In this document: piece by piece, positions 7,564 to 31,229 of the stretch
Layout of the letters: each line of letters opens with the position of its first letter
How positions within the stretch are numbered: position 1 is the first letter of the stretch
IMG/VR virus record: IMGVR_UViG_3300004241_000037
Coordinates: 1 to 31,647 of that record
Origin: a virus
Lineage: Duplodnaviria; Caudoviricetes
Strand: one strand, 5' to 3'
Length of the DNA: 31,647 nucleotides
The notes under the pieces: model-generated
What the model was told of the DNA's origin: nothing
The model's database searches: none
The model's input: the letters and a program-made list of their open reading frames with translations, nothing else
Program-made: the position numbers and the translations under genes

Positions 7564-10475
7564 TGCTTCTCCTTTACCCATGATTTGAGGAAGTGGTGCT
7601 TGACTATCGTGTTCTCTGTGACCTTCTCCGTATTCGCCTGGTGATCATACGGATAGAAATAGTCAGGGCTGAGCAGCTTGAAGTCATCCATCTTGAAACC
7701 CAGTTCGTGGTATCCCTTGGTCAGTACTTCCATTGAGGATTCAAAGTTCTTCTCGTCATCGCCCCGAAAGTTCTGCACCACATGGTCTATCCAATCCTTG
7801 ATGAACGGCTGGCCCTTGCAGGCCCCGAACACCGCAGAACCTATGAAGCCATTGTTCTCTGTGGCTGCGAACATCCCATGCTTGAGCAGTTCATCAAAGT
7901 TCTTCCCGGGCAGGATCTCCACGTCCGCATCCAAGTATATTCCACCTTCATTGTAAATGTAATACATCCGCAGATAGTCAGACATCTTCACCCACTTATT
8001 GTGGCGGTCTGAAGCCATAGCCTGCTGCATGTAGGGACAATCCCGGAAGGCGTTGTCATCAGTGATCAGGACATGTTCGTACCCCGGGATCTTCTGGCTT
8101 TCTATGCAACGCTTGACCAGCTCAGGCATCTCATTGCCAAGCCAGATAGTGAAGATACGTTTCGGGATACGCTGTACCCAGGGGAAGTTTTCCTTGAAGG
8201 CGAACCCCAGCTTCTCAGCACGTTCCTTGTAAAGCGCATGGTCATGAGCTACACGATCAGCTTTGTAGGCCAGGGTGTAGACCGGGTCTAGCTGTTCCTT
8301 GAAGCCGTCCTGTATCGGATGGTCATGGAAAACCTCAGCTTCTTCGGCCCAAGTGTAGGCATTCATCAGCTTGCAGCGTTCAGTCAGCTCATTGTCACAA
8401 CCGGTATGGTAGTACCCGGTGTGGAAGAACTCACCATCCAGGGCAGGGAGCAATGCCTTACCTGCCAGCCAGTGCGTAGCAAACTCGCCTTTCCAGTAGC
8501 CGTCATTCAGGCCGATGAGTCCTTTGTAGTCAGGGTACTCACGGATCATACGGAAGACGGCCTTCTGCAGGAAGTCCTTCCGGGGCATACAGTCATTACC
8601 CAGGTACATGACCAGCTCGCCCTTGGCTTCCTCTACCATCTGCTTCACCAGCTTGGGAACGCCAGTATTGTTTGGAGGGAACTGATCGTGCTTGACTATG
8701 ATCTCGTAGTTATCGTACCCAGCATTCTCCTTGATCAGCTTGAGCAGTCTACGGAACTTATCACCTCTGCCCAGGGTAGGGATGATGATACTGACCAGTG
8801 GCTTCTGCACGTATTTGTGCCAGATCGTATCAGCTACGCCGTCTATCGTACCGAAGGATTCATCCACTGCATCCTGTACCCCCATCCAGATCGTGTCCTT
8901 GTAGTCATGCCCACTGATTATCAGCTTGGCTTTATCACGCCAGAGGGCTATGTCTTCCAGCACACCTTCCTTGGTATGGGTTGCGTCAATGAAGATCATG
9001 TCAAACTTCTGGCCCTTCAGCTTCTCGGCAGCTTCCTTGGAAGTCATCTTCATGATCTCCAGGTTCGGGAAGTGGCCTACGTTTTGCTTGAACTTTTCAT
9101 ACACTCCCATCGGGATACCCTGCTGATAGGTCCAGTCACCCGGAACTGGAGTACCTTCAAACGTATCCACTGCGATCACTTTGCCTTTGCAGCCTGAGAG
9201 CAGGGCATGGGTAGAGCGACCACACCAGCTTCCGATCTCCACGATGGAGGTCATCTTCTTGGCAGTTTCAAATAGCCAGGTCAATTCAGGGAAGGTCATC
9301 CAACCCTCAATGCCCTGGTCCGGGTACTCAAAATAGTACTTGGTATCATGGAGGTACCGGTTACTGTTGAAGCAGTATTCTAATGCTTTCGTCAAATGCT
9401 CACGCCCACCGTCCACATCACCCATCCAACCTCTTGCCCAGTACAGGACTTCATGCGGGGCTGAGGTGTAATAATACAGATCGTTCATGTACAAATTATC
9501 CCAGGGGAGCTGGAGTGCAGCTCCGGCATAGGCAGCAGCGTGGTGCTTATCATCCCTGGCCTTGTAAACAAAGGCCAGTTTCATCAAGGCTTCACGCCGT
9601 GTGCCATCCAAAGCGAAGGCTTTCAGGTACCATTCAATCTGTTTACCCTGGTCTTTCAGCATACCGTAGCAGTCACCGATGAAGATCATGGACTGCGCTC
9701 TCTCGGCTGGCCAGCGGTCCATAGCGATATGCCGTTCAAACTCTTTGATGGCAGACTTGGGCCTGCCAGACCAAAGCAGCTCCCGAGCCAGGTAGTGGGA
9801 ATTGCGGTCATTGTCCGGGTGTGAGAAACAATCCAGGGCCAACCCAGCCAGGTACCGCTTTCGTTCCGGCTTGTCTTCCTGGAAGTGTTCTATCTTGAAT
9901 CTGTCTTCCGGAAGGAAGGTACGCTTGGCTTCGCCTTGCAGTACCTCATGTATGATCCCTTCCCAGTGCAGCTTGCGCCTGTCGTAGAACTTGCACTGCA
10001 TAAACTTGATGGACTCGTTCCCTAATCCGTCATGGGCAAAGACAAAGTTGAACTCCAGTTGTTCAAAGCCCTGGGCGATCACATCCTGGACATAGTCTAC
10101 ATCCAGTCGGGTGAAGATCTCATCGCAGTCTGGCATGGACACCATGTCATTTGAAGCGAGTGACGCTGCGTGGTTCCGGGCAGCAGCATAGTTGAAAAAG
10201 GTATCACCTTCATTCACGATCAAAGCTTCATCTCCTACCACGAACCGTTCATTGATAGCCTTGACCTGTTCCGGGGTCATCTTCTCCGTGTACTTGTCCC
10301 CGACTCTAGTTACTTTACAACCGAGGTTGGTAGCGATCTGCACGGTATCGTCAGTGCTGCCGGTATCCAGGACGATGATCTCACCGCCTCTGGCTTTGAA
10401 GTCAGCCAAGCTGTTGACCAGCTTTGGCAATGTTGTCGCCTCGTTCTTGGCGATCACGACTACGGAGAAGTTCAT
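7560..10475 (-). CDS. Multidomain glycosyltransferase: GT2 + TPR + SAM methyltransferase (Methyltransf_24-like) + GT2 + GT32/DXD-type
   Basis: Motifs in order: SVVVIAKNE/DTGSTD/DCDE; TPR-like helices (YLAREL...AIKEFERHI, YLKAFALDGTRREAL); VEIGSWCGRST/FIDATH/GHDY; VSIIIPTLGR/YLGNDC; RIPKRIFTIWLG/SDYLRM..IYNEGGIYLDADVE/HHFLKSW. Confidence 0.88.
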   Translation of the reverse strand: MNFSVVVIAKNEATTLPKLVNSLADFKARGGEIIVLDTGSTDDTVQIATNLGCKVTRVGDKYTEKMTPEQVKAINERFVVGDEALIVNEGDTFFNYAAARNHAASLASNDMVSMPDCDEIFTRLDVDYVQDVIAQGFEQLEFNFVFAHDGLGNESIKFMQCKFYDRRKLHWEGIIHEVLQGEAKRTFLPEDRFKIEHFQEDKPERKRYLAGLALDCFSHPDNDRNSHYLARELLWSGRPKSAIKEFERHIAMDRWPAERAQSMIFIGDCYGMLKDQGKQIEWYLKAFALDGTRREALMKLAFVYKARDDKHHAAAYAGAALQLPWDNLYMNDLYYYTSAPHEVLYWARGWMGDVDGGREHLTKALEYCFNSNRYLHDTKYYFEYPDQGIEGWMTFPELTWLFETAKKMTSIVEIGSWCGRSTHALLSGCKGKVIAVDTFEGTPVPGDWTYQQGIPMGVYEKFKQNVGHFPNLEIMKMTSKEAAEKLKGQKFDMIFIDATHTKEGVLEDIALWRDKAKLIISGHDYKDTIWMGVQDAVDESFGTIDGVADTIWHKYVQKPLVSIIIPTLGRGDKFRRLLKLIKENAGYDNYEIIVKHDQFPPNNTGVPKLVKQMVEEAKGELVMYLGNDCMPRKDFLQKAVFRMIREYPDYKGLIGLNDGYWKGEFATHWLAGKALLPALDGEFFHTGYYHTGCDNELTERCKLMNAYTWAEEAEVFHDHPIQDGFKEQLDPVYTLAYKADRVAHDHALYKERAEKLGFAFKENFPWVQRIPKRIFTIWLGNEMPELVKRCIESQKIPGYEHVLITDDNAFRDCPYMQQAMASDRHNKWVKMSDYLRMYYIYNEGGIYLDADVEILPGKNFDELLKHGMFAATENNGFIGSAVFGACKGQPFIKDWIDHVVQNFRGDDEKNFESSMEVLTKGYHELGFKMDDFKLLSPDYFYPYDHQANTEKVTENTIVKHHFLKSWVKEKQ

Positions 10476-20742: not shown

Positions 20743-21420
20743 CTATTTGATATAGACCGTACACTTGCCCCAGCCATCAGGGTTACGCTTCAGTCCCTTG
20801 CCGGGCATGTTCAGATAGTTGTTGTTCACCTGCGCCTGTCTCATGTCCCTGGTCAGTTCATGGTGCTGGTGGATCAGCCAGGCCCGGGGCCGGGCATCCA
20901 TCAGATGGTAGCCACTCTCCAGCGCTCTCCGGCGTATGTCTTCATCCTCACTGCCCCAGCCCTTGAAGTTCTCATCATAGCCCTGGACCGAGTTCAGCCA
21001 GTGACGGTTGAAGCAGAGGCAGCACGGCCTGTTCCCCACCTTGTACTCTTTCCCATCAGAGTCCAGGTAGGAAGGCGAACACCCGATCAGAGTCTTCGGG
21101 TCATCGGTCACTGCCCTCAGGTAAGTCTCCATCAGGTTCTCACTGAAGATCATATCTATCCCGCAGGTCATCACCCACTCTGTCTTCGCCCGCCGTATCC
21201 CGATGTTGTTGGCATGGCTGATATTGAAAAGGGGTTGGGCATTGCCCACGATCACCAGGTCATCCTTGAACATCCGGCGTTCCCATTCCAGGTTCTCCGG
21301 CCTGCTCCCATAATCCACCACGATCAGCTTGCAGGGTATCGTCTGTGCTATTACACTGGTATAGAAATTACCGGCCAGCGTTACCGGACGGTCCTTGATA
21401 CTTACTACGCAGGTGAGCAT
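20743..21420 (-). CDS. GT2/GT7C-type glycosyltransferase
   Basis: From ATG 21420 (alternative 21432): VVSIKDR, VVDYGS, FNISHANNIG, GYDENFKGWGSEDEDIRRR, IHQHH. The upstream extension to 21597 is antisense to the next gene and is not GT-like. Confidence 0.85.
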   Translation of the reverse strand: MLTCVVSIKDRPVTLAGNFYTSVIAQTIPCKLIVVDYGSRPENLEWERRMFKDDLVIVGNAQPLFNISHANNIGIRRAKTEWVMTCGIDMIFSENLMETYLRAVTDDPKTLIGCSPSYLDSDGKEYKVGNRPCCLCFNRHWLNSVQGYDENFKGWGSEDEDIRRRALESGYHLMDARPRAWLIHQHHELTRDMRQAQVNNNYLNMPGKGLKRNPDGWGKCTVYIK

Positions 21421-22204
21421 GGGTGTACGCATTGTCGCCGGGTTCGGCTTCCGATACGATAAGGAATTGGTGGAGGACTGTGTAGCCAATCTCTCTCCCT
21501 GGGTTGATGACTTCGCTATCCTAGATGATACCAAGCATGACCGCCTCTGGCGTAATGAGTCTGAGTACCGGTACCTGATCCGTAACCTTGCTATCAAAAA
21601 AAAGGCTGACTATCTTCTCATCACTTCACCTGATGAACGGTGGGAGAAAAACGCTGGTACCATTATAAGACAAGCCATTGAATTTGAACAGCATCCCAAA
21701 CGTCCTCTCACCCGGAAAGAGTTCTTCCTGAAGTACCACACCTACTATCTCCCACCCGCTGAGTTCAAGTACCCCGGCTCTGAGTTCTTCTACAATAACC
21801 CCAATATCATCTACACCTTTGATCTCCGGGAGTTATGGACTCCACGCACATATCGCATAGACGGCATCTGGGGGAAAAAGAAACGGCCCCGCCTCTTTGC
21901 CATCAAGCCCGGCCAGGTCTTTGATAAGTCTCCCATCCAGTGCAAGTCCTACCCCATAAACGCTGGCTATACCTTCTGCCATCTCCCGGTCAATATCTAC
22001 CACCTCAAGATGATCAACCCCTCCAACAGAAAATTGCGGGCTGAGGTTTTCACGAAACTTGACCCCAACCTCAAGTATCAGTCCATCGGATATGATTACC
22101 TTTTTGATGAAACAGGTCTACAATTAGAGCAGATCCCCAAAGGCAGAGGCTACTCGCCCCGCTATAAGGAGTACACATTTACCGTACCAAAGGAGTACCT
22201 ATGA
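21419..22204 (+). CDS. GT-A-like glycosyltransferase (divergent)
   Basis: RIVAGFGFRY...LSPWVDDFAILDD...ADYLLITSPDERW...IYHLK; DxD position reads SPDE; ATGA coupling to the nitroreductase. Confidence 0.65.
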   Translation: MGVRIVAGFGFRYDKELVEDCVANLSPWVDDFAILDDTKHDRLWRNESEYRYLIRNLAIKKKADYLLITSPDERWEKNAGTIIRQAIEFEQHPKRPLTRKEFFLKYHTYYLPPAEFKYPGSEFFYNNPNIIYTFDLRELWTPRTYRIDGIWGKKKRPRLFAIKPGQVFDKSPIQCKSYPINAGYTFCHLPVNIYHLKMINPSNRKLRAEVFTKLDPNLKYQSIGYDYLFDETGLQLEQIPKGRGYSPRYKEYTFTVPKEYL

Positions 22205-22743
22205 GTGCCGATCCCTTCCAGGACGCCTACCTCTTACACCAAGCCAGAAAGAAGGAACAGTTGCTTCACTATAAAGAAGACGCTTTCCACTTCCTTGCTA
22301 CCTCCCGCCACTCAGACCGCATCTTCAAGCCAGATCCCATCTCCCCTGAGCTTCTACGCAAACTCAATGCTCTCATGCCCCTCGCCCCTTCCTCCTGTAA
22401 CCGTCACGCTATGACCGTCTCTGAGATCAAAGGTGATCACATCCCACCTCTCGCTTCCCTCCTGGTCGGAGGCAAGAACTGGCTGGACTATGCTCCCCTC
22501 GTCTTCCTCATCTTCGCTCACCCTGAAGCCTACAAAGCACCAGGCGAACTCTCCTTCATGCCCTACCTGGACGGCGGCTTCCTCGCCATGCACATCCTCT
22601 ACTCTGCCCATTCCCTCAATCTCGCCTCCTGCTTCTGTAACCCCAACATCCGGCCAGAAGATCTCCCCATCTTCAATCCTTCCTATAATAGTAATGCCCT
22701 CATCTTCACCGGGGCCATAGCCATCGGCTACCCCTTCCCCTAA
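22201..22743 (+). CDS. Nitroreductase family flavoprotein
   Basis: SRHSDRIF, LAPSSCNRH, YLDGGFLAMHILYSAHSLNLASCF, AIAIGYP are the canonical nitroreductase motifs. Confidence 0.88.
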   Translation: MSADPFQDAYLLHQARKKEQLLHYKEDAFHFLATSRHSDRIFKPDPISPELLRKLNALMPLAPSSCNRHAMTVSEIKGDHIPPLASLLVGGKNWLDYAPLVFLIFAHPEAYKAPGELSFMPYLDGGFLAMHILYSAHSLNLASCFCNPNIRPEDLPIFNPSYNSNALIFTGAIAIGYPFP

Positions 22744-22849
22744 CCTAGTGACGTATTCCTCCCATCTTGTCTCAGCACGGATTCTTACGCCATCCTGAGA
22801 GGCCTGGACATACCAACTACTGTCCTTATCCTCAGCTAATCCGGGGATC

Positions 22850-23280
22850 CTTTACCCTTTTTACCCCTTTTTGCTCCCTACACGTCTGTAGCAATGAGAT
22901 GGGTTTATATTATGTCACTACTACTATTACTCACCAACCCTCCCCACTGGGTACCACGCTACCCCTACTCTTGCTTACACTATCTCTGCTTCTACTACCT
23001 ACACACTACTACTCTACACACACATACTACCTACCTACTAACTGACTACTATACAATAAATACAATTCCTTCTTTTACTCCCGACTACTTTACTCTCTAC
23101 TTACTTACTATCTTTCTACTATACAATTTCTCTTACGCTTTTACTTTCTTACTTTACTAGCTACTGCTATCTCACATTACTACTTTACCCTACTTTACTC
23201 TCTCTCTCTTTACTACCTTACTACTTCCTTTTATCTGTCTAGTTACTTTACACTTTCTTTCTTTCCTTTTTACTCAACCA
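22850..23280. repeat. Low-complexity, G-depleted (TAC/TACT/CT-rich) non-coding tract
   Basis: Only 8 G counted in the 300 nt 22981-23280 on the plus strand; many TACT/CTAC words; ORFs over it are low-complexity. Confidence 0.9.
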
Positions 23281-23399
23281 TATCTCAGTAGCAATATGCT
23301 ACAGCGCTATACGCGTTATGATATCAGAAGAATTGCATAGAAACCCACCTCACTTTAAGCGCTAGCGCCAATACAGTATAGCCATTCATTTCTTTTGAC

Positions 23400-23420
23400 C
23401 ATTTTCTTAGTAAGAAAATG
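23400..23420. promoter_or_regulatory. Perfect 10-bp inverted repeat (candidate operator)
   Basis: CATTTTCTTA-G-TAAGAAAATG, abutting a TTGACC hexamer at 23395-23400. Confidence 0.55.
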
Positions 23421-23446
23421 CTAAACATACACGGCATCCTCTACCT

Positions 23447-24073
23447 GTCATGCTCTCTTTGCCGAATAAGAGAACATGACTATATAGGATCCCGGCTTAG
23501 CCTCGCTAACGCTCGGGTCCTATATCTCACAACAAAAGAAACCAGAGCCACGCCAAGACTATATCGGGCATCGCCTGTGTCGTTCCAGAGCGTGGCATCT
23601 ATCTTAGTATTCCCACAAAAGAATAGTAAGCTACCCCCCGCGCTTCGCAACCAGCGCTCCATCTGTGCCTGGCCTAACAAAGAGTTATCGTATAACCGGC
23701 CAGTCACAAGACAGGCATGCGGTGAGCAGTTGAGTAAGACATACTGCACCTGACTGGCGCTATGCAAAGCTGCCAATGAAACACCGCCTGGACGCCCGAT
23801 TTCCTCGTCACCTTTGCTGAGCGCCAGTAAAACTGTACATGTTGGTCTATGAATAATTTATCTTAGGAGTGCGTTGCCCTTTCATTTTCTCATAGCACAA
23901 CCCACCAGTGTCATCCAGAAAACCAGGCAGTCAAGGCTCCCAACGGATTACCGTTGTGAGGCACCTGAGCCCTACAAACGAGGTGCTAATCTATGATCGC
24001 AGACATTTAGCAACCCTATCATTCTTAGCTCTAGGCTGCCTAACAGCGACTTGACAGCCTTCGGTGCTATGAG
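23447..24073. ncRNA. Candidate large structured non-coding element (RNA or ssDNA), family unknown
   Basis: Seven consecutive stem-loops with 6-12 bp helices at 23447-23480, 23482-23525, 23547-23596, 23664-23708, 23721-23750, 23753-23828 and a multibranch domain at 23889-24073; no credible CDS here. Confidence 0.5.
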
Positions 24074-24109
24074 GCACTAGAGGTGTTTAAATAATTAGTG
24101 GGGATTGGT

Positions 24110-24450
24110 TAGGTTTCAGATTTATATTTATTAGGAGTTGAAAATGCTTTGCAAAGTGGTGAACAAGTATCATAGTGCGTACGATGTGTATATCGGGAGA
24201 GGAAGTAAATGGGGAAATCCGTTCAGGATTGGACCCGATGGGAATCGGGAGGAAGTTATTGCGAAGTACGAGACGTACATTCGCAATAAACCAGAATTAC
24301 TCGCTCAGATTACTGAGCTTATCGGCAAGACTCTTGGTTGCTTTTGCGCCCCTCTTCCGTGTCACGGAGATGTGCTTGCACGGCTTGCCGAGGAGAATAT
24401 GAGTAGATAATTCAATTATCAGATAGGTTTCAGATTATTTATTATGAGGT
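24110..24450 (+). repeat. Imperfect direct repeat flanking the DUF4326 gene
   Basis: TAGGTTTCAGATT at 24110-24122 and 24424-24436, each followed by ATTTATTA and an RBS. Confidence 0.75.
24144..24410 (+). CDS. DUF4326 family protein
   Basis: YDVYIGRGSKWGNPF...REEVIAKY...GKTLGCFCAPLPCHGDVL; AGGAG RBS before ATG 24144. Confidence 0.9.
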   Translation: MLCKVVNKYHSAYDVYIGRGSKWGNPFRIGPDGNREEVIAKYETYIRNKPELLAQITELIGKTLGCFCAPLPCHGDVLARLAEENMSR

Positions 24451-24457
24451 ATCAGAC

Positions 24458-25144
24458 ATGCGCACAGACGTTGACTGTCTCCGAGAGAACAGTACCCACA
24501 TCATTTATGGACCTGTTCCCTACGCCATCACAGACCCGGATGGAACGGTAGCGAAGAACCTGTTCAAGAAGTATGGGTGGTACAATGAGAAGATAAAGAA
24601 GCTCGCACCTGCCTACCCATGCGAAGCGTTCTTTGAGATAACGCATCGCACCACTGGTGTACAACGCCACTGGTCCTGCACGATTGAGAGCAGAGAACAT
24701 GCTCTCGCTATCGTGAACACCCTGCGTAAACAGGATACGAAGCCCAAGTCCTACGTTCCTGAGTGGGTGTTGGCACACCCTGCCTATAAGAAATCCAGAG
24801 AAGAAATCAAGAGCAGACAACCAGACGTGAACCACGTCAGCGTCTCGCTCGTCTCGCCCATCGGTGACCCTGAAGGGGAGGCAGAGTTGGAAGATGCGGT
24901 CGCTCAGATCACCGATCCCACCGTTCCCTCTCCCATGGAAACCAGAGAATACACGGACTGGACCTCGTTCTACGAGGACATGGACACTTGGGTTGCACAG
25001 GGTTGCCCCCCTTCCGGCAAACCTTCCCCCGAAGCGTATGCTTACACAAGAGAGGTCGTAGCTGACGACCTTGACCATAGCAGGGACATCCCGCCCAAGG
25101 TCATCGCTGACGATGGCCTTGACCCCGATGCCTTGTGGATATAA
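24458..25144 (+). CDS. Hypothetical protein (acidic C-terminal half)
   Basis: 228 aa, GAGGT RBS, followed by a hairpin. Confidence 0.6.
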   Translation: MRTDVDCLRENSTHIIYGPVPYAITDPDGTVAKNLFKKYGWYNEKIKKLAPAYPCEAFFEITHRTTGVQRHWSCTIESREHALAIVNTLRKQDTKPKSYVPEWVLAHPAYKKSREEIKSRQPDVNHVSVSLVSPIGDPEGEAELEDAVAQITDPTVPSPMETREYTDWTSFYEDMDTWVAQGCPPSGKPSPEAYAYTREVVADDLDHSRDIPPKVIADDGLDPDALWI

Positions 25145-25153
25145 ATGCAAACA

Positions 25154-25184
25154 GAGAGGGAGGTGGCACGCCCATCTCCCTCTC
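25154..25184 (+). terminator. Stem-loop, possible terminator or processing site
   Basis: GAGAGGGAGGTGG-CACGC-CCATCTCCCTCTC, 13 bp with one G-U; the U-rich run is displaced about 15 nt downstream. Confidence 0.5.
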
Positions 25185-25233
25185 ATTCCAAAAGAGTTTA
25201 TCCTTTTGTTTTATATCTTACGGAGTGTCCCCT

Positions 25234-25395
25234 ATGGACAGCAAACAGAAACAGAAAACGCCTGCCAGTGTACCCGATACCTGGCTGACGTGGGCGGTCA
25301 AGAGTGAGCAGATGCGTAGAGGTGGCAACGCAGTGGCAGCCCACCGCTACGCTCGCCTTGCCCGTACCCAAATGCTGGGAAAGAACAGGGCATAG
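25234..25395 (+). CDS. Small basic hypothetical protein
   Basis: GGAG RBS before ATG 25234; 53 aa; sits between two hairpins. Confidence 0.45.
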   Translation: MDSKQKQKTPASVPDTWLTWAVKSEQMRRGGNAVAAHRYARLARTQMLGKNRA

Positions 25396-25411
25396 CGCAC
25401 CTTGCCAAAGA

Positions 25412-25475
25412 GTGGGGGTCACCACCACCCTAGCCTTCGGTTCGTTCCGGAGGTGTGGGTGGTGGTGACCCCCAC
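25412..25475 (+). repeat. Long GC-rich hairpin (19-bp perfect inverted repeat plus 8-bp inner stem)
   Basis: GTGGGGGTCACCACCACCC (25412-25430) / GGGTGGTGGTGACCCCCAC (25457-25475); inner GCCTTCGG/CCGGAGGT uses G-U pairs on the plus strand. Confidence 0.85.
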
Positions 25476-25626
25476 CGTTCCTCTCGCCTCGGACTGGTAC
25501 TGGCCGGGGACCCTACTCGTAAGTTGAACCACCGCCAACCCTGTACCCATCTATTATCACTCGCCTTCAGGAGGTAGGCGTATTGTAAGTTGAACCATTG
25601 TCTAGTTACTTAACAAGGAGCATGCT

Positions 25627-25899
25627 ATGAACATGCGCTATCGTAACCTGGAAGGTGAAACCCTGTTCCAAGCCCTCAAGCGTGAAGGTCTACATCGGTG
25701 CGGTAAGTCGGTGCTTGACCAGTGGTCTGAAAGCCCACGGAAAGATGAACACGGTGACACGCTTACTCGCTACACCTTCTGGTCTGAACATCAGATTGAT
25801 TGCGACCAGTTGAATATGCTCTCTAACTTTGGAGCATTCATGGAGTTCATCTGGACAGACGAAGGTACTATCTACATCTCTATTATCACAAGGAGATAG
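25627..25899 (+). CDS. Hypothetical protein
   Basis: 90 aa, AAGGAG RBS. Confidence 0.6.
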   Translation: MNMRYRNLEGETLFQALKREGLHRCGKSVLDQWSESPRKDEHGDTLTRYTFWSEHQIDCDQLNMLSNFGAFMEFIWTDEGTIYISIITRR

Positions 25900-25901
25900 G
25901 A

Positions 25902-26267
25902 ATGTCCTATCCACAGTTTGAAGATCTCAAGGTCTGGCAGAAAACCCGCAACCTGGTGGTTGCTACTGCCGATGTGCTGACTAAGTCATCCATGCGAGAC
26001 ACCATTCCCTGTAAGGTGATCCTGCGTGACTCGCTCTCTATCCTGAACAACATAGCCAAAGGCTATGAGGCTAGAGAAAACAAATCGTTCCCTCGTTACC
26101 TCACCGCTGCCCGTGGTTACGCTGGTGAGTTCAGATCCTGCCTGTATGTACTGGCTGACCTGAACATCATCACCCCGGAACAACGTGAGGTCATGGATCA
26201 GGAAGCCCGTGACATCGCCAAGATGTTAGGCGGTCTCATCAAACATCTGACCTCTCCCGACTGTTGA
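25902..26267 (+). CDS. Four-helix bundle protein (23S rRNA IVP / TIGR02436 family, Avd-related fold)
   Basis: FEDLKVWQK...SILNNIAKGY...RYLTAARG...MLGGLIKHL matches the family pattern. Confidence 0.85.
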   Translation: MSYPQFEDLKVWQKTRNLVVATADVLTKSSMRDTIPCKVILRDSLSILNNIAKGYEARENKSFPRYLTAARGYAGEFRSCLYVLADLNIITPEQREVMDQEARDIAKMLGGLIKHLTSPDC

Positions 26268-26293
26268 CATTACTGACAGTACTATTGTATACT
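26264..26293 (+). promoter_or_regulatory. Sigma70-type promoter
   Basis: TTGACA (26264-26269) - 18 nt - TATACT (26288-26293). Confidence 0.75.
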
Positions 26294-26300
26294 TATCTAG

Positions 26301-26312
26301 GAAAGGAGGTGA
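26301..26312 (+). promoter_or_regulatory. Orphan extended Shine-Dalgarno at predicted transcript 5' end (STAB-SD-like)
   Basis: GAAAGGAGGTGA with no start codon 5-10 nt downstream; the next gene has its own AGGAG at about 26353. Confidence 0.55.
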
Positions 26313-26364
26313 CCCACCAGGCACGTTTACATCTCATCAGTCTATATCTAAACAGGAGTCTGCA

Positions 26365-26553
26365 ATGCCAGACGAAATGCTTCTCAAACAAATACAGAAA
26401 ATCTGCTCAGCCTATCGGCTGATGCAGGAGTTCGTTGATGACCTGGCACTGGAGCCTGAAGAACAGGCGCTAGTGGAACAGGCACATGCCCGGTACGTTG
26501 ACGCAGTCAACATGCTGTCCGCTATCTACAACCTGGAGGTGGACAATGTCTAA
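26365..26553 (+). CDS. Small helical hypothetical protein
   Basis: 62 aa, AGGAG RBS, first gene after the promoter. Confidence 0.6.
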   Translation: MPDEMLLKQIQKICSAYRLMQEFVDDLALEPEEQALVEQAHARYVDAVNMLSAIYNLEVDNV

Positions 26554-26803
26554 CCTACCCTGGCATGTCGGTACGCTGGATGAACGGATGGGAGCGCATG
26601 GTCTCATCCGATCCGGCAAGTACCCCGATGACGTGTACGCAGTACATGGCATGGAGTACACCCGGCTGGTGTATGCCTCACCCTGGAAGGTGAAGCATGT
26701 ACATGACCTCAGCCTATCGGACTTCAACGCTTGGATTGAAGACGTATGGGCTGAAGGTGACATCGTCTACATCTCAGTCATTATCTCGGATGGTGACGCA
26801 TGA
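26546..26803 (+). CDS. Hypothetical protein
   Basis: Start moved to ATG 26546 (GGAGGT RBS); 85 aa MSNLPWHVG... Confidence 0.6.
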   Translation: MSNLPWHVGTLDERMGAHGLIRSGKYPDDVYAVHGMEYTRLVYASPWKVKHVHDLSLSDFNAWIEDVWAEGDIVYISVIISDGDA

Positions 26804-26976
26804 TCACAGCAACCTGTCCCTTCTGTCATCAGCCTATGTCTGATGCTGAAGTCAAACGCTCAATCAAACTCAGCGTTGGTATGTGTGACCAATGCTGGTC
26901 AGGTCAGGGTACGGAAGTCGGAGACTTCAACCCGGACCTCATCACTGATCAAACCATTACCGGGGATCAATCATGA
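26800..26976 (+). CDS. Small zinc-finger protein
   Basis: Below the ORF-track cutoff; 58 aa MITATCPFCHQ...MCDQCWSG; ATGA coupling at both ends. Confidence 0.65.
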   Translation: MITATCPFCHQPMSDAEVKRSIKLSVGMCDQCWSGQGTEVGDFNPDLITDQTITGDQS

Positions 26977-27782
26977 ACACTGATAAAATCACCCAAGCCC
27001 TGCTGGATAAACTCCGGCAGGGTCAGATACCCTGGCACAAGACGTGGGATTGTGACTACCAGAACGGTGTCACTCACCACGAGTACCAGGGCATCAACGT
27101 CCTGCTACTCGCCTTCTCTCGGCAAGATCATCCCTACTGGTACACCTTCAATCAGGTACGCCAGCTCGGGGGATCGGTGAAGAAAGGCGAACATGCTACC
27201 ACCATTGTCCACTACAAACTGGTGGACAAGAAGGACAAAGAGGGTAAGGTCATTGGCAAGTACCCCATGTTCTCAGCCTGGGCTGTGTTCAACCACAACC
27301 AGACCACACTACCAGACACGAAGGTGGAAGCCCCACCTATCCAGTCAGTAGGTGAGATCCTCACTCAGTACATCGGATGTCCACCATTCGTGGATGGCAC
27401 ATACTGTGCATACAATCCGGTGAAGGATGAACTCATCATGCCCAAGGCGAAATACTTTGACCATCCTGAAGACTATGCTCAGGCATTGTTCCATGAACTG
27501 ACGCATAGCACTGGTCACAAGTCACGGCTTGACCGTAACCTTGAGGATCGTAGCAACTATTCCTTTGAGGAACTGGTTGCCGAGATGGGCGCATGCTTCC
27601 TTGGTCACAAGGCTGGCACTGCTGCCCCTACCATAGACAATACCGTTGCCTACCTGCAGGGTTGGCTGAAACGTCTGGGTGATAACCCGGACTGGATCAT
27701 CAAGGCTGCAGCCAAGGCTCGTGTTGCTACCAACTACATACTTGGAAAGGAGAAACATGAAGCACGCTGTGCTGCTGCCTAA
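26973..27782 (+). CDS. ardC: ArdC-family ssDNA-binding anti-restriction protein with zincin-like domain
   Basis: IPWHKTW, YQGINVLLL, WYTFNQVRQLGGSVKKGEH, VFN, LFHELTHSTGHKSRLDR, YSFEELVAEMGA, AYLQGWL. Confidence 0.92.
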   Translation: MNTDKITQALLDKLRQGQIPWHKTWDCDYQNGVTHHEYQGINVLLLAFSRQDHPYWYTFNQVRQLGGSVKKGEHATTIVHYKLVDKKDKEGKVIGKYPMFSAWAVFNHNQTTLPDTKVEAPPIQSVGEILTQYIGCPPFVDGTYCAYNPVKDELIMPKAKYFDHPEDYAQALFHELTHSTGHKSRLDRNLEDRSNYSFEELVAEMGACFLGHKAGTAAPTIDNTVAYLQGWLKRLGDNPDWIIKAAAKARVATNYILGKEKHEARCAAA

Positions 27783-27811
27783 CCTATCTAATTTGTAAAG
27801 AGACTAGACAA

Positions 27812-28483
27812 ATGGAGAAAACAAACATCAAGATGGTCAGGGTACACCCTGCCATCCAAGAGACTCAGACCATACTTAATCACTTTGTATTGGTGTCAGG
27901 TATGTCCTTCCTACTTCTCTGCTTCATTGCAGTAACCTGGGGCGTATTCAATCCTGAACGCGTAGGATCGTCTGTAGAGGCAGATAGTGTCCAGACGATA
28001 GAGGACACCACTCCGGAGCCGATAGCCCCAGCGCTTGAGGCAAGCGTTGCCAGCGTAGAACCTGGCATCTCATCCAACTCTGTATACAACTGGCAGTATG
28101 CCGTTGATCAGTGGAATGAGTGTAAAGGAAATGTAAACATGGCTACCTTCTACCAGGACTGGGTCAACTGGTACGGAGAACTATCTGCAATGCAGATGTG
28201 TCTCATCACCTGGCCCGAGTCAAGGTACGACTGGTATGCCAAAGGTGATAACGGTTGGTCAATCGGAATGTTCCAGATCAACATACCTGCCGGACACTGC
28301 AAGAAAGTGGAAGGCTTGGTAGGTGGATCACTCAGCGATGCTGAATGTAAGGAACTTCTGTTTGACCCGGAGATCAACCTGACTGTTGCTCGTCAACTGT
28401 ACGAAGCACAGGGTTGGACTCCCTGGTCTGGACGCAAGGCCTACCTGCCTGACTTCCGTGTTGACTGGCTTACACTTGAATAA
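27812..28483 (+). CDS. Membrane-anchored lytic transglycosylase (SLT / lysozyme-like)
   Basis: N-terminal TM helix, acidic linker, catalytic PES, SIGMFQIN, LFDPEINLTVA, GWTPW. Confidence 0.8.
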   Translation: MEKTNIKMVRVHPAIQETQTILNHFVLVSGMSFLLLCFIAVTWGVFNPERVGSSVEADSVQTIEDTTPEPIAPALEASVASVEPGISSNSVYNWQYAVDQWNECKGNVNMATFYQDWVNWYGELSAMQMCLITWPESRYDWYAKGDNGWSIGMFQINIPAGHCKKVEGLVGGSLSDAECKELLFDPEINLTVARQLYEAQGWTPWSGRKAYLPDFRVDWLTLE

Positions 28484-28493
28484 GGAGAATGTC

Positions 28494-28658
28494 ATGACCG
28501 AGAAGCTATCGTTTATCGGACTGACTAACAAGGTGGAGAAGATCATACTCACCAAGTACGATCTCACCCGGCAATCAGCATCCATCAATGAGATGGCCAA
28601 GGAGATCATCAATCTCGTAGTGGATACTTGTATCGCTGAAATGCGGAGGGAGAAATGA
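28494..28658 (+). CDS. Small hypothetical protein
   Basis: AAGGAG RBS before ATG 28494; 54 aa. Confidence 0.55.
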   Translation: MTEKLSFIGLTNKVEKIILTKYDLTRQSASINEMAKEIINLVVDTCIAEMRREK

Positions 28659-28816
28659 GTTGCCCTAACTGCGCTATGGTTTACTGCTCTTGCGGTGAAC
28701 CGATGGAAGACAATGGATACGGTGGTTGGCTCTGCCCCGAGTGCGGAGAACAGGTCGGTAACCGTATCCCCTCATCAGAGGAACCTGACTATCCAGATAT
28801 ACCGGAGGTAGAATGA
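28655..28816 (+). CDS. Small zinc-ribbon protein
   Basis: Below the ORF-track cutoff; 53 aa MSCPNCAMVYCSCGEPM...WLCPECGE; ATGA coupling at both ends. Confidence 0.65.
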   Translation: MSCPNCAMVYCSCGEPMEDNGYGGWLCPECGEQVGNRIPSSEEPDYPDIPEVE

Positions 28817-29100
28817 GATACACCTACGCAACAGGCAACATAGACATTGCTGCCTTCTTGCTACATAAAGGCTACCGCCCGAACAGGATCAGCAAACATA
28901 CCTACACTACGAAGCACGGTGTCAACAAGCCGAGTAGTGAATGGCTGTTTGAACTGCCGGACCATCCCAATCGTTTCATTGACGAGTGGGAAGTGTCTCC
29001 GGAGTTTCACTTCACTCAGTGCCGGGTAGCACTGAAGGCGGCTATCCAGAAGTTGTTCGCCTCATCCTCATCCTCACTTATCATGACGGAGCAAGTATGA
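28813..29100 (+). CDS. DUF5659-like protein
   Basis: YATGNIDIAAFLLHKGY...WLFE pattern; GGAGGT RBS. Confidence 0.55.
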   Translation: MRYTYATGNIDIAAFLLHKGYRPNRISKHTYTTKHGVNKPSSEWLFELPDHPNRFIDEWEVSPEFHFTQCRVALKAAIQKLFASSSSSLIMTEQV

Positions 29101-29384
29101 TAGAGACATCTGGAAAGACATACGATGTCGTGTACAGTATCGCTACTGCTACCGACACGCTGTTTCCTGAAGTGTGGAAGTGCGGTGTGGTCTTCAAATA
29201 CTTTGGAGATCACCAATCCCATCTGGAGTTCACTCACGATGGACCCGGTGTCATCTCACATACCGGGTACTTCTCAAACTTCCCATCCTGGGATGTTACC
29301 CCGGAGAATGTGGAAGGTTACATCAGCGCCTTGCTCAAAGACGAAGGCATATCCAATTACTCAATCACAAAGGAGAACGCATGA
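29097..29384 (+). CDS. Hypothetical protein
   Basis: Start moved to ATG 29097 (GGAG RBS, ATGA coupling); 95 aa. Confidence 0.6.
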   Translation: MIETSGKTYDVVYSIATATDTLFPEVWKCGVVFKYFGDHQSHLEFTHDGPGVISHTGYFSNFPSWDVTPENVEGYISALLKDEGISNYSITKENA

Positions 29385-30190
29385 AGATCCTCTCACTCTC
29401 TGACTTCATCTCAGTACAGGCGTACAAAGACTACGCCTCTGAGGAAACCAGAGATCCCACTAAGTGGCACATGTCAGGCTTCGGTACCTGTATGCGCAAG
29501 CGTATGTACCGCCGGGCTGATATAGCCGGGCTACCCGAATGTCCCAAGTCACTGAAGAACTTTGCCTTCGGTGACATGATCCATTCCTACATCCAGAAGC
29601 AGGCTCAGGACAACAAGTCCTCTGACTTCCACATCCGAGGGATGGAGATCCAGATCCCGATAGTGGATGACGGTACTGTCAAAAAGATTGAACCCTGGAC
29701 AGACAAGGTGTCTGGCCATGTAGACATGATCGTTGAGGTGAACGGCAAGATGATAGCGTATGAACTGAAGTCCATACACTTCCTTGCCATGAACCGCTAC
29801 ATGAAAGGCAAGCGTTGCCTTGAGGATGAACTGGCTAATGCCTACCCCCATCACCATGCCCAGTTGTCTGCCTATGTCTACTTCCTTCGGAAGTCCGGGG
29901 TGAAGATAGACGAGGCCCGGATAGTCTACATCTGCAAGTCCAACATGTTCATGGCTGAAGTACCACTCCAGATGTGGGACGTTGAACGTGAACTCAAACT
30001 GCTGGAAGCAGCCTGGGCGCAGTACCAGAAGGACGGTACCCTACCGGCCAAGATCCCATCGGATGATCCGGTATACTGGCAGTGTTCGTACTGCTCATAC
30101 CGTTCCATCTGTCGTGAGATGAAGTCATGTGATTGTCAGTATTGCCAGGCCATCATGGCAAACGATCCAACCTTTGATGTAAAGGACTAG
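29381..30190 (+). CDS. Cas4-like PD-(D/E)XK exonuclease (solo, not CRISPR-associated)
   Basis: Start ATG 29381 (AAGGAG); TCMRK, GDMIH, SGHVD, YELKS, QLSAY, CSYCSYRSIC (four-Cys Fe-S pattern). Confidence 0.85.
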   Translation: MKILSLSDFISVQAYKDYASEETRDPTKWHMSGFGTCMRKRMYRRADIAGLPECPKSLKNFAFGDMIHSYIQKQAQDNKSSDFHIRGMEIQIPIVDDGTVKKIEPWTDKVSGHVDMIVEVNGKMIAYELKSIHFLAMNRYMKGKRCLEDELANAYPHHHAQLSAYVYFLRKSGVKIDEARIVYICKSNMFMAEVPLQMWDVERELKLLEAAWAQYQKDGTLPAKIPSDDPVYWQCSYCSYRSICREMKSCDCQYCQAIMANDPTFDVKD

Positions 30191-30192
30191 AC

Positions 30193-30507
30193 ATGAGCTT
30201 CAACAACACTCATCAGCAGTACACCCTGTACCGTGTCCATACCCTCATCCCCGGCTACAAGCTGGGGATGAAGGGGCGGGAGAAGTACATCGCTGTACCC
30301 ACTAAGTATCTCAGAGGCCCGGTACTTGTCACCTATGCCGTCAAGGAAAAGATGTACATAGGCGATGGCGTACGCCCGGTACTGGAGAATACCTTTGAGG
30401 ACAAGCACCGACCCGGGGAGAAGTACACCCTGTCCTACTTCAAGTGGGAACCGGATACGGTACAGACCAGCTTCATGCCAGAAGATCCGGAGGGTACTGA
30501 TGATTGA
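30193..30507 (+). CDS. Hypothetical protein
   Basis: 104 aa, AAGGA RBS, 2 nt after the upstream stop. Confidence 0.6.
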   Translation: MSFNNTHQQYTLYRVHTLIPGYKLGMKGREKYIAVPTKYLRGPVLVTYAVKEKMYIGDGVRPVLENTFEDKHRPGEKYTLSYFKWEPDTVQTSFMPEDPEGTDD

Positions 30508-30871
30508 ACCATCTACCATCCCTGTCCAATCCAACTCTCCCAACTTTGAGAAGTGGAAGAAACAGATGACACTGGCCAAACGCATAGGCATGAGAGCTGC
30601 CTATGAGGAAGCCTGGGATAAACCCCTGGTCATAGCCTATAAGGATCTTGACTGGTGTGTTGCTCGTCTGAACGATATGGACAGGCAAGCACTCCGATCC
30701 GGTTGCGCCGTCATGAACCAGGACGGTAATGGCTTCTGGTACTTCGCAATCTCCAACGCACAGATGTACAACACCTTGTGTAAACAGAAGGCTGTTGAGG
30801 ATTATCACAAACAGGCAGCCTGGAATAACCTGGCTGGCTGGGGTGAGATCCTGGAGAAAGAACAAGGTTGA
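30500..30871 (+). CDS. Hypothetical protein
   Basis: Start moved to ATG 30500 (GGAGG RBS); 123 aa. Confidence 0.6.
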   Translation: MIEPSTIPVQSNSPNFEKWKKQMTLAKRIGMRAAYEEAWDKPLVIAYKDLDWCVARLNDMDRQALRSGCAVMNQDGNGFWYFAISNAQMYNTLCKQKAVEDYHKQAAWNNLAGWGEILEKEQG

Positions 30872-30896
30872 CTGTACTGTCTATTTCCACTATACT
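30868..30896 (+). promoter_or_regulatory. Sigma70-type promoter, probably giving a leaderless transcript
   Basis: TTGACT (30868-30873) - 17 nt - TATACT (30891-30896); ATG at 30903 with no RBS. Confidence 0.7.
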
Positions 30897-30902
30897 ACTG
30901 TC

Positions 30903-31229
30903 ATGAATAACAGTGGATGGAAAGAACAGAAGGAAGCAGTCTACCTGCGTGACAAGGGGCGGTGCCGGTTCTGTCACAAACCTGCGCCAGATGGTACCGC
31001 CCACCACGCTATCTTCCGGTCACATTCGTTAGAGTTTAGTAACCTAAAGGAGAATCTGTTATGGACATGTCAGACCTGCCACAGGACGATCCATTCGCCG
31101 ACCCGATCCAGCCTGCACCTCAGCCTCCAGCTCAGGGAGCAGGGGGAAACTATGGCACTACGCCAGCTCAGGGACAGCAAGGTGGAACTGAGCCAACCCC
31201 AACTGGACCAACTAAGAAACGAGTCCTAG
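30903..31229 (+). CDS. HNH endonuclease
   Basis: VYLRDKGRCRFC...AHHAIFRS...ENLLWTCQTCHRTIH; 108 aa from ATG 30903. Confidence 0.82.
   Translation: MNNSGWKEQKEAVYLRDKGRCRFCHKPAPDGTAHHAIFRSHSLEFSNLKENLLWTCQTCHRTIHSPTRSSLHLSLQLREQGETMALRQLRDSKVELSQPQLDQLRNES

Follow-up and report, generated by a model that had tools for sequence, protein, structure and literature searches.

The window analysed here, a stretch of 31,647 nucleotides, is the virus record IMGVR_UViG_3300004241_000037 of a tailed phage, in which terminase, portal (with T7-type matches), capsid, and tail-fibre genes run leftward on the minus strand and small genes for DUF4326, a four-helix-bundle protein, ardC, a Cas4-like nuclease, and an HNH-like protein run rightward. 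From this gene content, we take the rightward arm to be early. One public contig contains the window as two pieces, with 30 bases of overlap at the ends, so that the phage genome maps as a circle 40,036 bases long and the window makes up 79% of it; the 38% completeness figure of the virus record is too low. Genome matches for host assignment did not exceed 41% identity and were taxonomically scattered, and the Atlas search for a host gave no usable match. Two near-consensus sigma-70 promoters inside the early arm (26264-26293 and 30868-30896) point, as sequence motifs, to a bacterial host.

The gene-free junction and its hairpins

The two arms diverge at a gene-free gap (22744-24143) that is wider than the element reported in the preliminary description (23288-24073). 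At the left edge of the gap, two plus-strand genes end (21419-22204 and a nitroreductase gene, 22201-22743), and ardC lies 2.9 kb downstream of the element. Four DNA sequencing runs, labelled freshwater metagenome, contain the element or part of it; their contigs hold no variant within the element, and none ends or is joined there.

The preliminary description had depicted about 790 nt of tiled stem-loops. The helices are real: those listed at 23288-23302, 23447-23480, 23482-23525, 23547-23596, 23664-23708, 23721-23750, and 23753-23828 are all present, as is the domain 23889-24073, and we found three extra hairpins (23400-23420, 23603-23631, and 23639-23657). The first part, 23288-23440, is not folded beyond chance, and the structured block runs from about 23390 to 24075. 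The inner hairpin described within 23664-23708 is there in sequence but is unstable and forms in only some predicted folds. In the rod 23926-24059, two predicted folds near 23937-23960 exclude each other. The features are collected in Table 1.

Table 1. Features of the gene-free junction and of the first early gene, in window coordinates.
Feature	Position	Strand	Remarks
G-poor, C/T-rich unstructured tract	22850..23290	+	outside the element
Imperfect 19-bp palindrome, operator-like	23235..23253		four copies in the window
Small hairpin, 6 bp	23288..23302		first in the series; surrounding 150 nt at chance folding, z -1.7 plus / -0.8 minus
A/T-rich hairpin, 9 bp	23400..23420		
Back-to-back hairpin pair	23447..23525		23447-23480 and 23482-23525; most stable part
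Irregular stem-loop and two hairpins	23545..23657		stem-loop 23545-23599, hairpin 23603-23631, small hairpin 23639-23657
Three tiled stem-loops	23664..23828		23664-23708, 23721-23750, and 76-nt rod 23753-23828
185-nt domain	23889..24073		9-bp closing helix, irregular rod 23926-24059 inside
A/T-rich leader motif and ribosome-binding site of the first early gene	24110..24143	+	
DUF4326, first early gene	24144..24410	+	beats synonymous shuffles, z -2.6

The leader motif in front of the first early gene recurs before the second gene (24424-24449) and, weakly, at 23844-23870, where it is followed by a 40-codon frame predicted by no gene caller. A 26-nt repeat (24110-24135 and 24424-24449, 81% alike) flanks the DUF4326 gene like a cassette boundary. 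Further into the early arm, the four-helix-bundle protein (25902-26267) belongs to Pfam PF05635. Avd accessory proteins, which serve diversity-generating retroelements, share this fold, but the window shows no reverse transcriptase. To the left of the gap, the start codons of two divergent genes, a glycosyltransferase gene on the minus strand and a 261-aa gene on the plus strand, overlap at 21418-21421, which leaves no space for a promoter between them; the four runs show no joint or inversion at this overlap.

Folding of the element and of the early arm

Folding was compared with dinucleotide shuffles, 20 for the whole element and 40 for each of its parts. The large structured element proposed in the preliminary description held up in this comparison, as 23280-24090 beat its shuffles on both strands (z -6.71 plus, -4.66 minus) and none of the 20 shuffles was as good. 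The excess was spread unevenly over the parts. At 23288-23440, it was not significant on either strand (Table 1), while it reached z -7.7 plus and -3.8 minus in a core at 23440-23640, -3.1 and -2.9 at 23640-23850, and -3.6 and -2.5 at 23880-24080. On the plus strand, the core lies -15.2 kcal/mol per 100 nt relative to shuffles; it is the most strongly folded of 10 stretches compared and stands above every coding stretch among them. In 701 nt, 181 pairs were predicted with confidence on the plus strand and 147 on the minus strand.

A scan of the window in 28 windows of 700 nt, with 8 shuffles each, set these values against the rest of the genome. The element came third of the 28 on both strands, at 52 (plus) and 47 (minus) kcal/mol below shuffles, behind 24790-25489 (68 and 53) and the ardC gene (58 and 52), both of which are in the early arm. 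All 11 windows from 23390 to 31089 folded 14 to 68 kcal/mol below shuffles on the plus strand, and the 17 windows to the left of 23390 ranged from +12 to -25 kcal/mol. When codons were shuffled synonymously (one out-of-frame terL row was dropped), seven of the eight early genes beat their shuffles, with z -2.6 to -7.3 and an excess of about 4.6-7.9 kcal/mol per 100 nt, as did two of nine late or junction genes, namely the capsid gene and its upstream neighbour. The folding of the early arm is thus not codon bias. Among the stem mismatches read on the plus strand, 19 of 76 were G.T and 8 were A.C in the early arm; the late arm had 10 and 9 of 58. On these predictions, the early arm looks folded as plus-strand RNA, and the element looks continuous with it.

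Because the whole early arm is folded beyond synonymous shuffles, a folding z-score alone cannot flag a large non-coding RNA in this phage. The arm-wide folding is the more useful result and may deserve a separate study. In ten distant relatives, 7 of 140 windows of 500 nt reached -20, and these were scattered; here, five of six early-side windows did (3 shuffles).

Such a background bears on the reading that the element is functionless filler, that is, decayed early genes or a spacer where the two arms meet (perhaps at the genome end), under the same folding pressure as the early arm. Its density of pairs shared by the two strands, 164 in 811 nt, is within the range of early coding sequence (80-156 in 700 nt), and the leader-like motif at 23844-23870 precedes nothing more than the uncalled 40-codon frame. 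A gap at this place is also common, since inspection by eye of 80 terminase-related loci picked out 19 with an ORF-free gap of 0.67-2.2 kb upstream of terL. However, those gaps are mostly unfolded: 5 of 64 windows of 300 nt reach -20 kcal/mol on either strand, compared with -23/-26 here. The core exceeds every coding stretch compared, and non-coding DNA would lose perfect stems without selection. We therefore regard filler as quite improbable. Folded patches do occur in the ORF-free gaps upstream of terL of three distant relatives (L064, 3158-3757; L006, 4205-4804; L011, 6853-7152); they have no Rfam match and no likeness to the element.

Relatives, coding potential, and architecture

The only long frames over the element encode 111 aa (plus) and 98 aa (minus), and neither is among the called proteins, in which all five flanking genes that we looked up were found. 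A coding reading through the 111-aa frame was rejected, as the frame is uncalled and has no relative in a word-indexed search; its single match among 1.84 billion representatives is a tandem-repeat protein.

Covariance-model searches gave no Rfam match at gathering scores in the whole window or, within 21500-24500, at E<=10; on this ground, every Rfam family, including the introns, was rejected. ARAGORN found no tRNA or tmRNA in the window, that is, in 79% of the genome, and these classes were rejected as well. A likeness to group I intron P7 sequences and to ssoA boxes was dropped because the partner strand was absent or the order was reversed.

Searches for homologs were equally without result. 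Against INPHARED, blastn returned only chance matches of 23-41 nt (E 0.5-9), and against the plasmids of PLSDB, it again returned only chance matches of 23-41 nt. Neither nhmmer nor blastn found a homolog in 80 terminase-related viral loci, 80 ardC loci, 50 genome loci, or 47 pattern loci, and blastn on 26 whole records gave two matches of 15-16 nt only. Single-sequence covariance models of two domains, which are weak models of their kind, found no homolog in searches that extended, for 50 of the 80 terminase loci, to the complete records. Four DNA patterns run over the viral collection hit 29, 9, 9, and 0 stretches, none of them related. The closest two terminases are at 68% identity. One locus, L002, comes from the same phage, with 100% identity across 21,443 nt, and for that reason yields no covariation.

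Literature searches for large RNAs of phages, viral RNA candidates, Frpo/ArdC, the c2 origin, and early leaders with structure returned nothing that describes the element. The candidate RNAs of Fremin et al. 2023 (PMC10690425) are 29-151 nt long; six short strings from the element are absent from three of the supplementary files of that paper, and a sub-motif of the element may still be listed among its candidates. The sequence of the element is new to every collection searched, and its probable kind is a known one: the structured non-coding head of a phage early transcript.

The preliminary description had mentioned GOLLD and ROOL as large structured phage RNAs, with no assignment of the element to them. 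A stand-alone ornate non-coding RNA of that kind, 650-800 nt long, with its own function in trans and founding a new family, would suit several observations. The element is phage-encoded, similar in length (GOLLD often exceeds 800 nt; PMC12286853), and heavily base-paired on prediction, with about half of its bases in the 181 confident plus-strand pairs; its core is the strongest fold of the stretches compared, and the RNAfold structure of the plus strand draws multi-branch domains with G.U pairs. GOLLD and ROOL are described as having pseudoknots and kissing loops and as often lying near tRNA genes (PMC12286853). The element, in contrast, has no covariance-model match at E<=10 (Rfam 15), no tRNA island or tRNA in the window, no plus-strand 3' terminator, no homolog in any search, and no spread across other phages.

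Its architecture also speaks against this kinship. With nine hairpin blocks held fixed and only the 232 linker bases shuffled, 23 of 100 shuffled sequences on the plus strand and 61 of 100 on the minus strand folded as well as the element (z -0.78 plus, +0.20 minus). No two unpaired segments can form six or more Watson-Crick pairs on either strand. Neither inter-hairpin pairing nor kissing loops go beyond chance. These tests are thermodynamic, rest on a single sequence, and can miss tertiary contacts. On this evidence, the element is predicted to be a string of about ten local hairpins and rods, and a GOLLD- or ROOL-like RNA is unlikely.

Strand, flanks, and the proposed early transcript

Judged by its predicted folding, the element is likely a structured non-coding RNA. 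The preliminary description had remarked on conflicting hints as to its strand, and the conflict is borne out. In none of its four parts does the element fold better on minus than on plus. Within its own stems, the mismatches read on plus are G.T in 0 and A.C in 2 of 9 cases, a weak lean to minus, and G.U pairs make up 12 of 147 pairs on minus versus 6 of 181 on plus. A noisy single run with 3 shuffles gave -44 on minus versus -35 on plus for 23416-23915. A is similarly enriched among the unpaired bases of the two strands (0.36 and 0.38). Because 164 of 173 Watson-Crick pairs are common to the two strands, the stems alone cannot separate RNA from DNA or plus from minus. Overall, we favour the plus strand over the minus strand by roughly two to one.

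This symmetry of the stems, their few G.T pairs, and their persistence under DNA energies would also suit a DNA-level element: an Frpo/ssi-type single-strand promoter or primer signal, which the preliminary description had raised, or a signal for packaging or injection located at the end of the genome. Analogues in other phages are the origin of lactococcal phage c2 and the injection-stop signal of T5. The site is where the two arms diverge, and, as in the Frpo/ssi of plasmid leading regions described in PMC7690428, hairpin-rich DNA lies upstream of the anti-restriction gene ardC. Unlike the Frpo/ssi described there, the element does not have -35 and -10 boxes in one duplex stem (PMC7690428): among 30 weak -35/-10 pairs, none exceeds 9/12 and none fits, and the only two that are mostly paired in both boxes, which overlap and score 8/12, straddle a loop and two hairpins. 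There is no plasmid match in PLSDB, no contig ends or joints lie at the element, and strong folding, at -30 or lower per 700 nt, is also found in 7 of 24 ardC genes from other phages. The terminase, portal, capsid, and tail-fibre genes, moreover, mark a tailed phage and not a conjugative plasmid, and we know of no long single-stranded stage in a tailed dsDNA phage. The Frpo/ssi comparison thus fails, and we consider a DNA-level element of any of these sorts very improbable.

The left flank of the element is a tract with 12 G versus 96 C in 300 nt and z of about -1.4 on plus; a comparable G-poor tract was found in 3 of 239 other loci. At fourfold-degenerate sites, C gains on G along the two plus-strand genes, the skew moving from -0.52 to -0.92 and -0.78. 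This bias, seen across 21419-23290, leads to a low-complexity, G-poor tract of 440 nt in which one tetranucleotide is frequent. Loci L007 and L049 have a skewed stretch of the same polarity about 5 kb upstream of terL, but it is in a predicted coding frame. Rho is described as preferring C-rich, G-poor, unstructured RNA (PMC6144790), and the tract fits a candidate C>G bubble where Rho would be loaded as the two plus-strand genes end. An R-loop-prone, G-rich minus-strand transcript would suit the tract too, and the data do not separate these two readings; G-rich transcripts are reported to favour R-loops, and T4 origins to consist of a promoter and an unwinding element (PMC4412123).

The second of these readings leads to a minus-strand RNA that begins with a folded 5' part and continues into the purine-rich tract. 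The tract would prime replication through an R-loop by the logic of ColE1 RNA II or a T4 origin, or the RNA would be a long leader of the late operon. The A.C and G.T counts in the stems lean that way, the G/C skew changes sign across the element, and the fourfold-site skew climbs toward it. The minus-strand gene at 20743-21420, the first of the late genes, shares sequence with the start of a plus-strand gene, which means that the promoter of this late gene has to be inside the overlapped gene or upstream. As for RNA II itself, a G-rich minus-strand tract is present and Rfam gave 0 matches in 21500-24500 at E<=10. However, folding is weaker on minus than on plus in all four parts, no minus-strand promoter above 8/12 was found near 24075-24200, a C>G bubble at the end of the two plus-strand genes explains the skew gradient equally well, and the replication genes are in the 8.4 kb absent from the window. 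A minus-strand RNA is accordingly improbable.

We hypothesize instead that the element is the non-coding head of a plus-strand early transcript, whose local hairpins would likely shield it from Rho and nucleases and from which cleavage may release small stable RNAs; its layout would be that of a Pleft RNA. We put the probability of this reading at about 0.5. Several observations argue for it. The folding excess that begins at about 23390 continues into the early arm, where the G.T-rich mismatches point to plus-strand RNA. No plus-strand terminator was found in 21500-24600, and hence none before the first early gene. The palindrome in front of the element recurs before two early genes: copies with up to 3 mismatches are at about 10303, 23236, 25599, and 27794 (0.06 expected; 0 of 100 shuffles reach four), of which those at 25599 and 27794 are directly upstream of the early genes at 25627 and 27812 and that at 10303 is within a late gene. 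The palindrome pattern had nine matches across the viral collection, all unrelated to the phage. We infer that the copy at 23235-23253 likely marks an early promoter region. The reading is weakened by the lack of a consensus promoter upstream of the element, where neither side shows more than 9/12 consensus matches, though the phage has two good sigma-70 promoters elsewhere, and by the lean to minus of the element's own mismatches and G.U counts.

In the mechanism that we propose, host RNA polymerase would start near the palindrome at 23235-23253, under operator control, and read through to DUF4326. The resulting untranslated head, about 850 nt long, would fold into hairpins during synthesis. 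In 23440-23839, C is higher than G on plus in three of four 100-nt bins, with a tie in the fourth; because the strand is richer in C than G here and would be untranslated, folding would block the loading of Rho, and the otherwise bare RNA would also be shielded from nucleases. A double-strand RNase might then cut the two long rods, of which 23753-23828 is a candidate processing site, and so release stable small RNAs and the early mRNA.

The closest parallel in layout, and in layout only, is with the Pleft RNAs of Cluster A mycobacteriophages. In L5, D29, and StarStuff, a non-coding region of ~500 bp is reported between Pleft and gene 89; its RNA is described as more abundant than any other transcript and probably processed to smaller species, as toxic to the host, and as having one part apparently needed for lytic growth (PMC5712189; bioRxiv 10.1101/2025.11.21.689395). 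Here, too, a gene-free stretch of several hundred bases reaches from a putative operator-bearing early promoter region to the first early gene, directly upstream of it and at the junction where early and late arms diverge, and a repeated palindrome is present, although with no consensus promoter beside it. In contrast to the Pleft RNAs, for which abundance, processing, and toxicity have been reported, the element is known from its sequence alone; it shows no likeness to them in INPHARED and belongs to an unrelated phage with T7-type portal matches. A more specific and more doubtful proposal is that the element gives rise to a new, abundant phage RNA that acts in host takeover in its own right, and that it is the non-coding tip of an early transcript folded on purpose throughout, also in its coding parts, against Rho, RNases, or RNA-targeting defences.

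The untranslated head of an early transcript also has a parallel in T7, whose early leader carries RNase III processing hairpins. As there, long irregular rods lie in untranslated parts of what would be an early polycistronic transcript; unlike T7, the candidate hairpins here are tiled over about 700 nt, and the folding extends through coding sequence. Between early genes, at 25412-25475, a 29-bp intergenic hairpin with G.U pairs on plus resembles the T7 processing hairpins and is a candidate RNase III-type site; it is the strongest local fold in the window (z -9).
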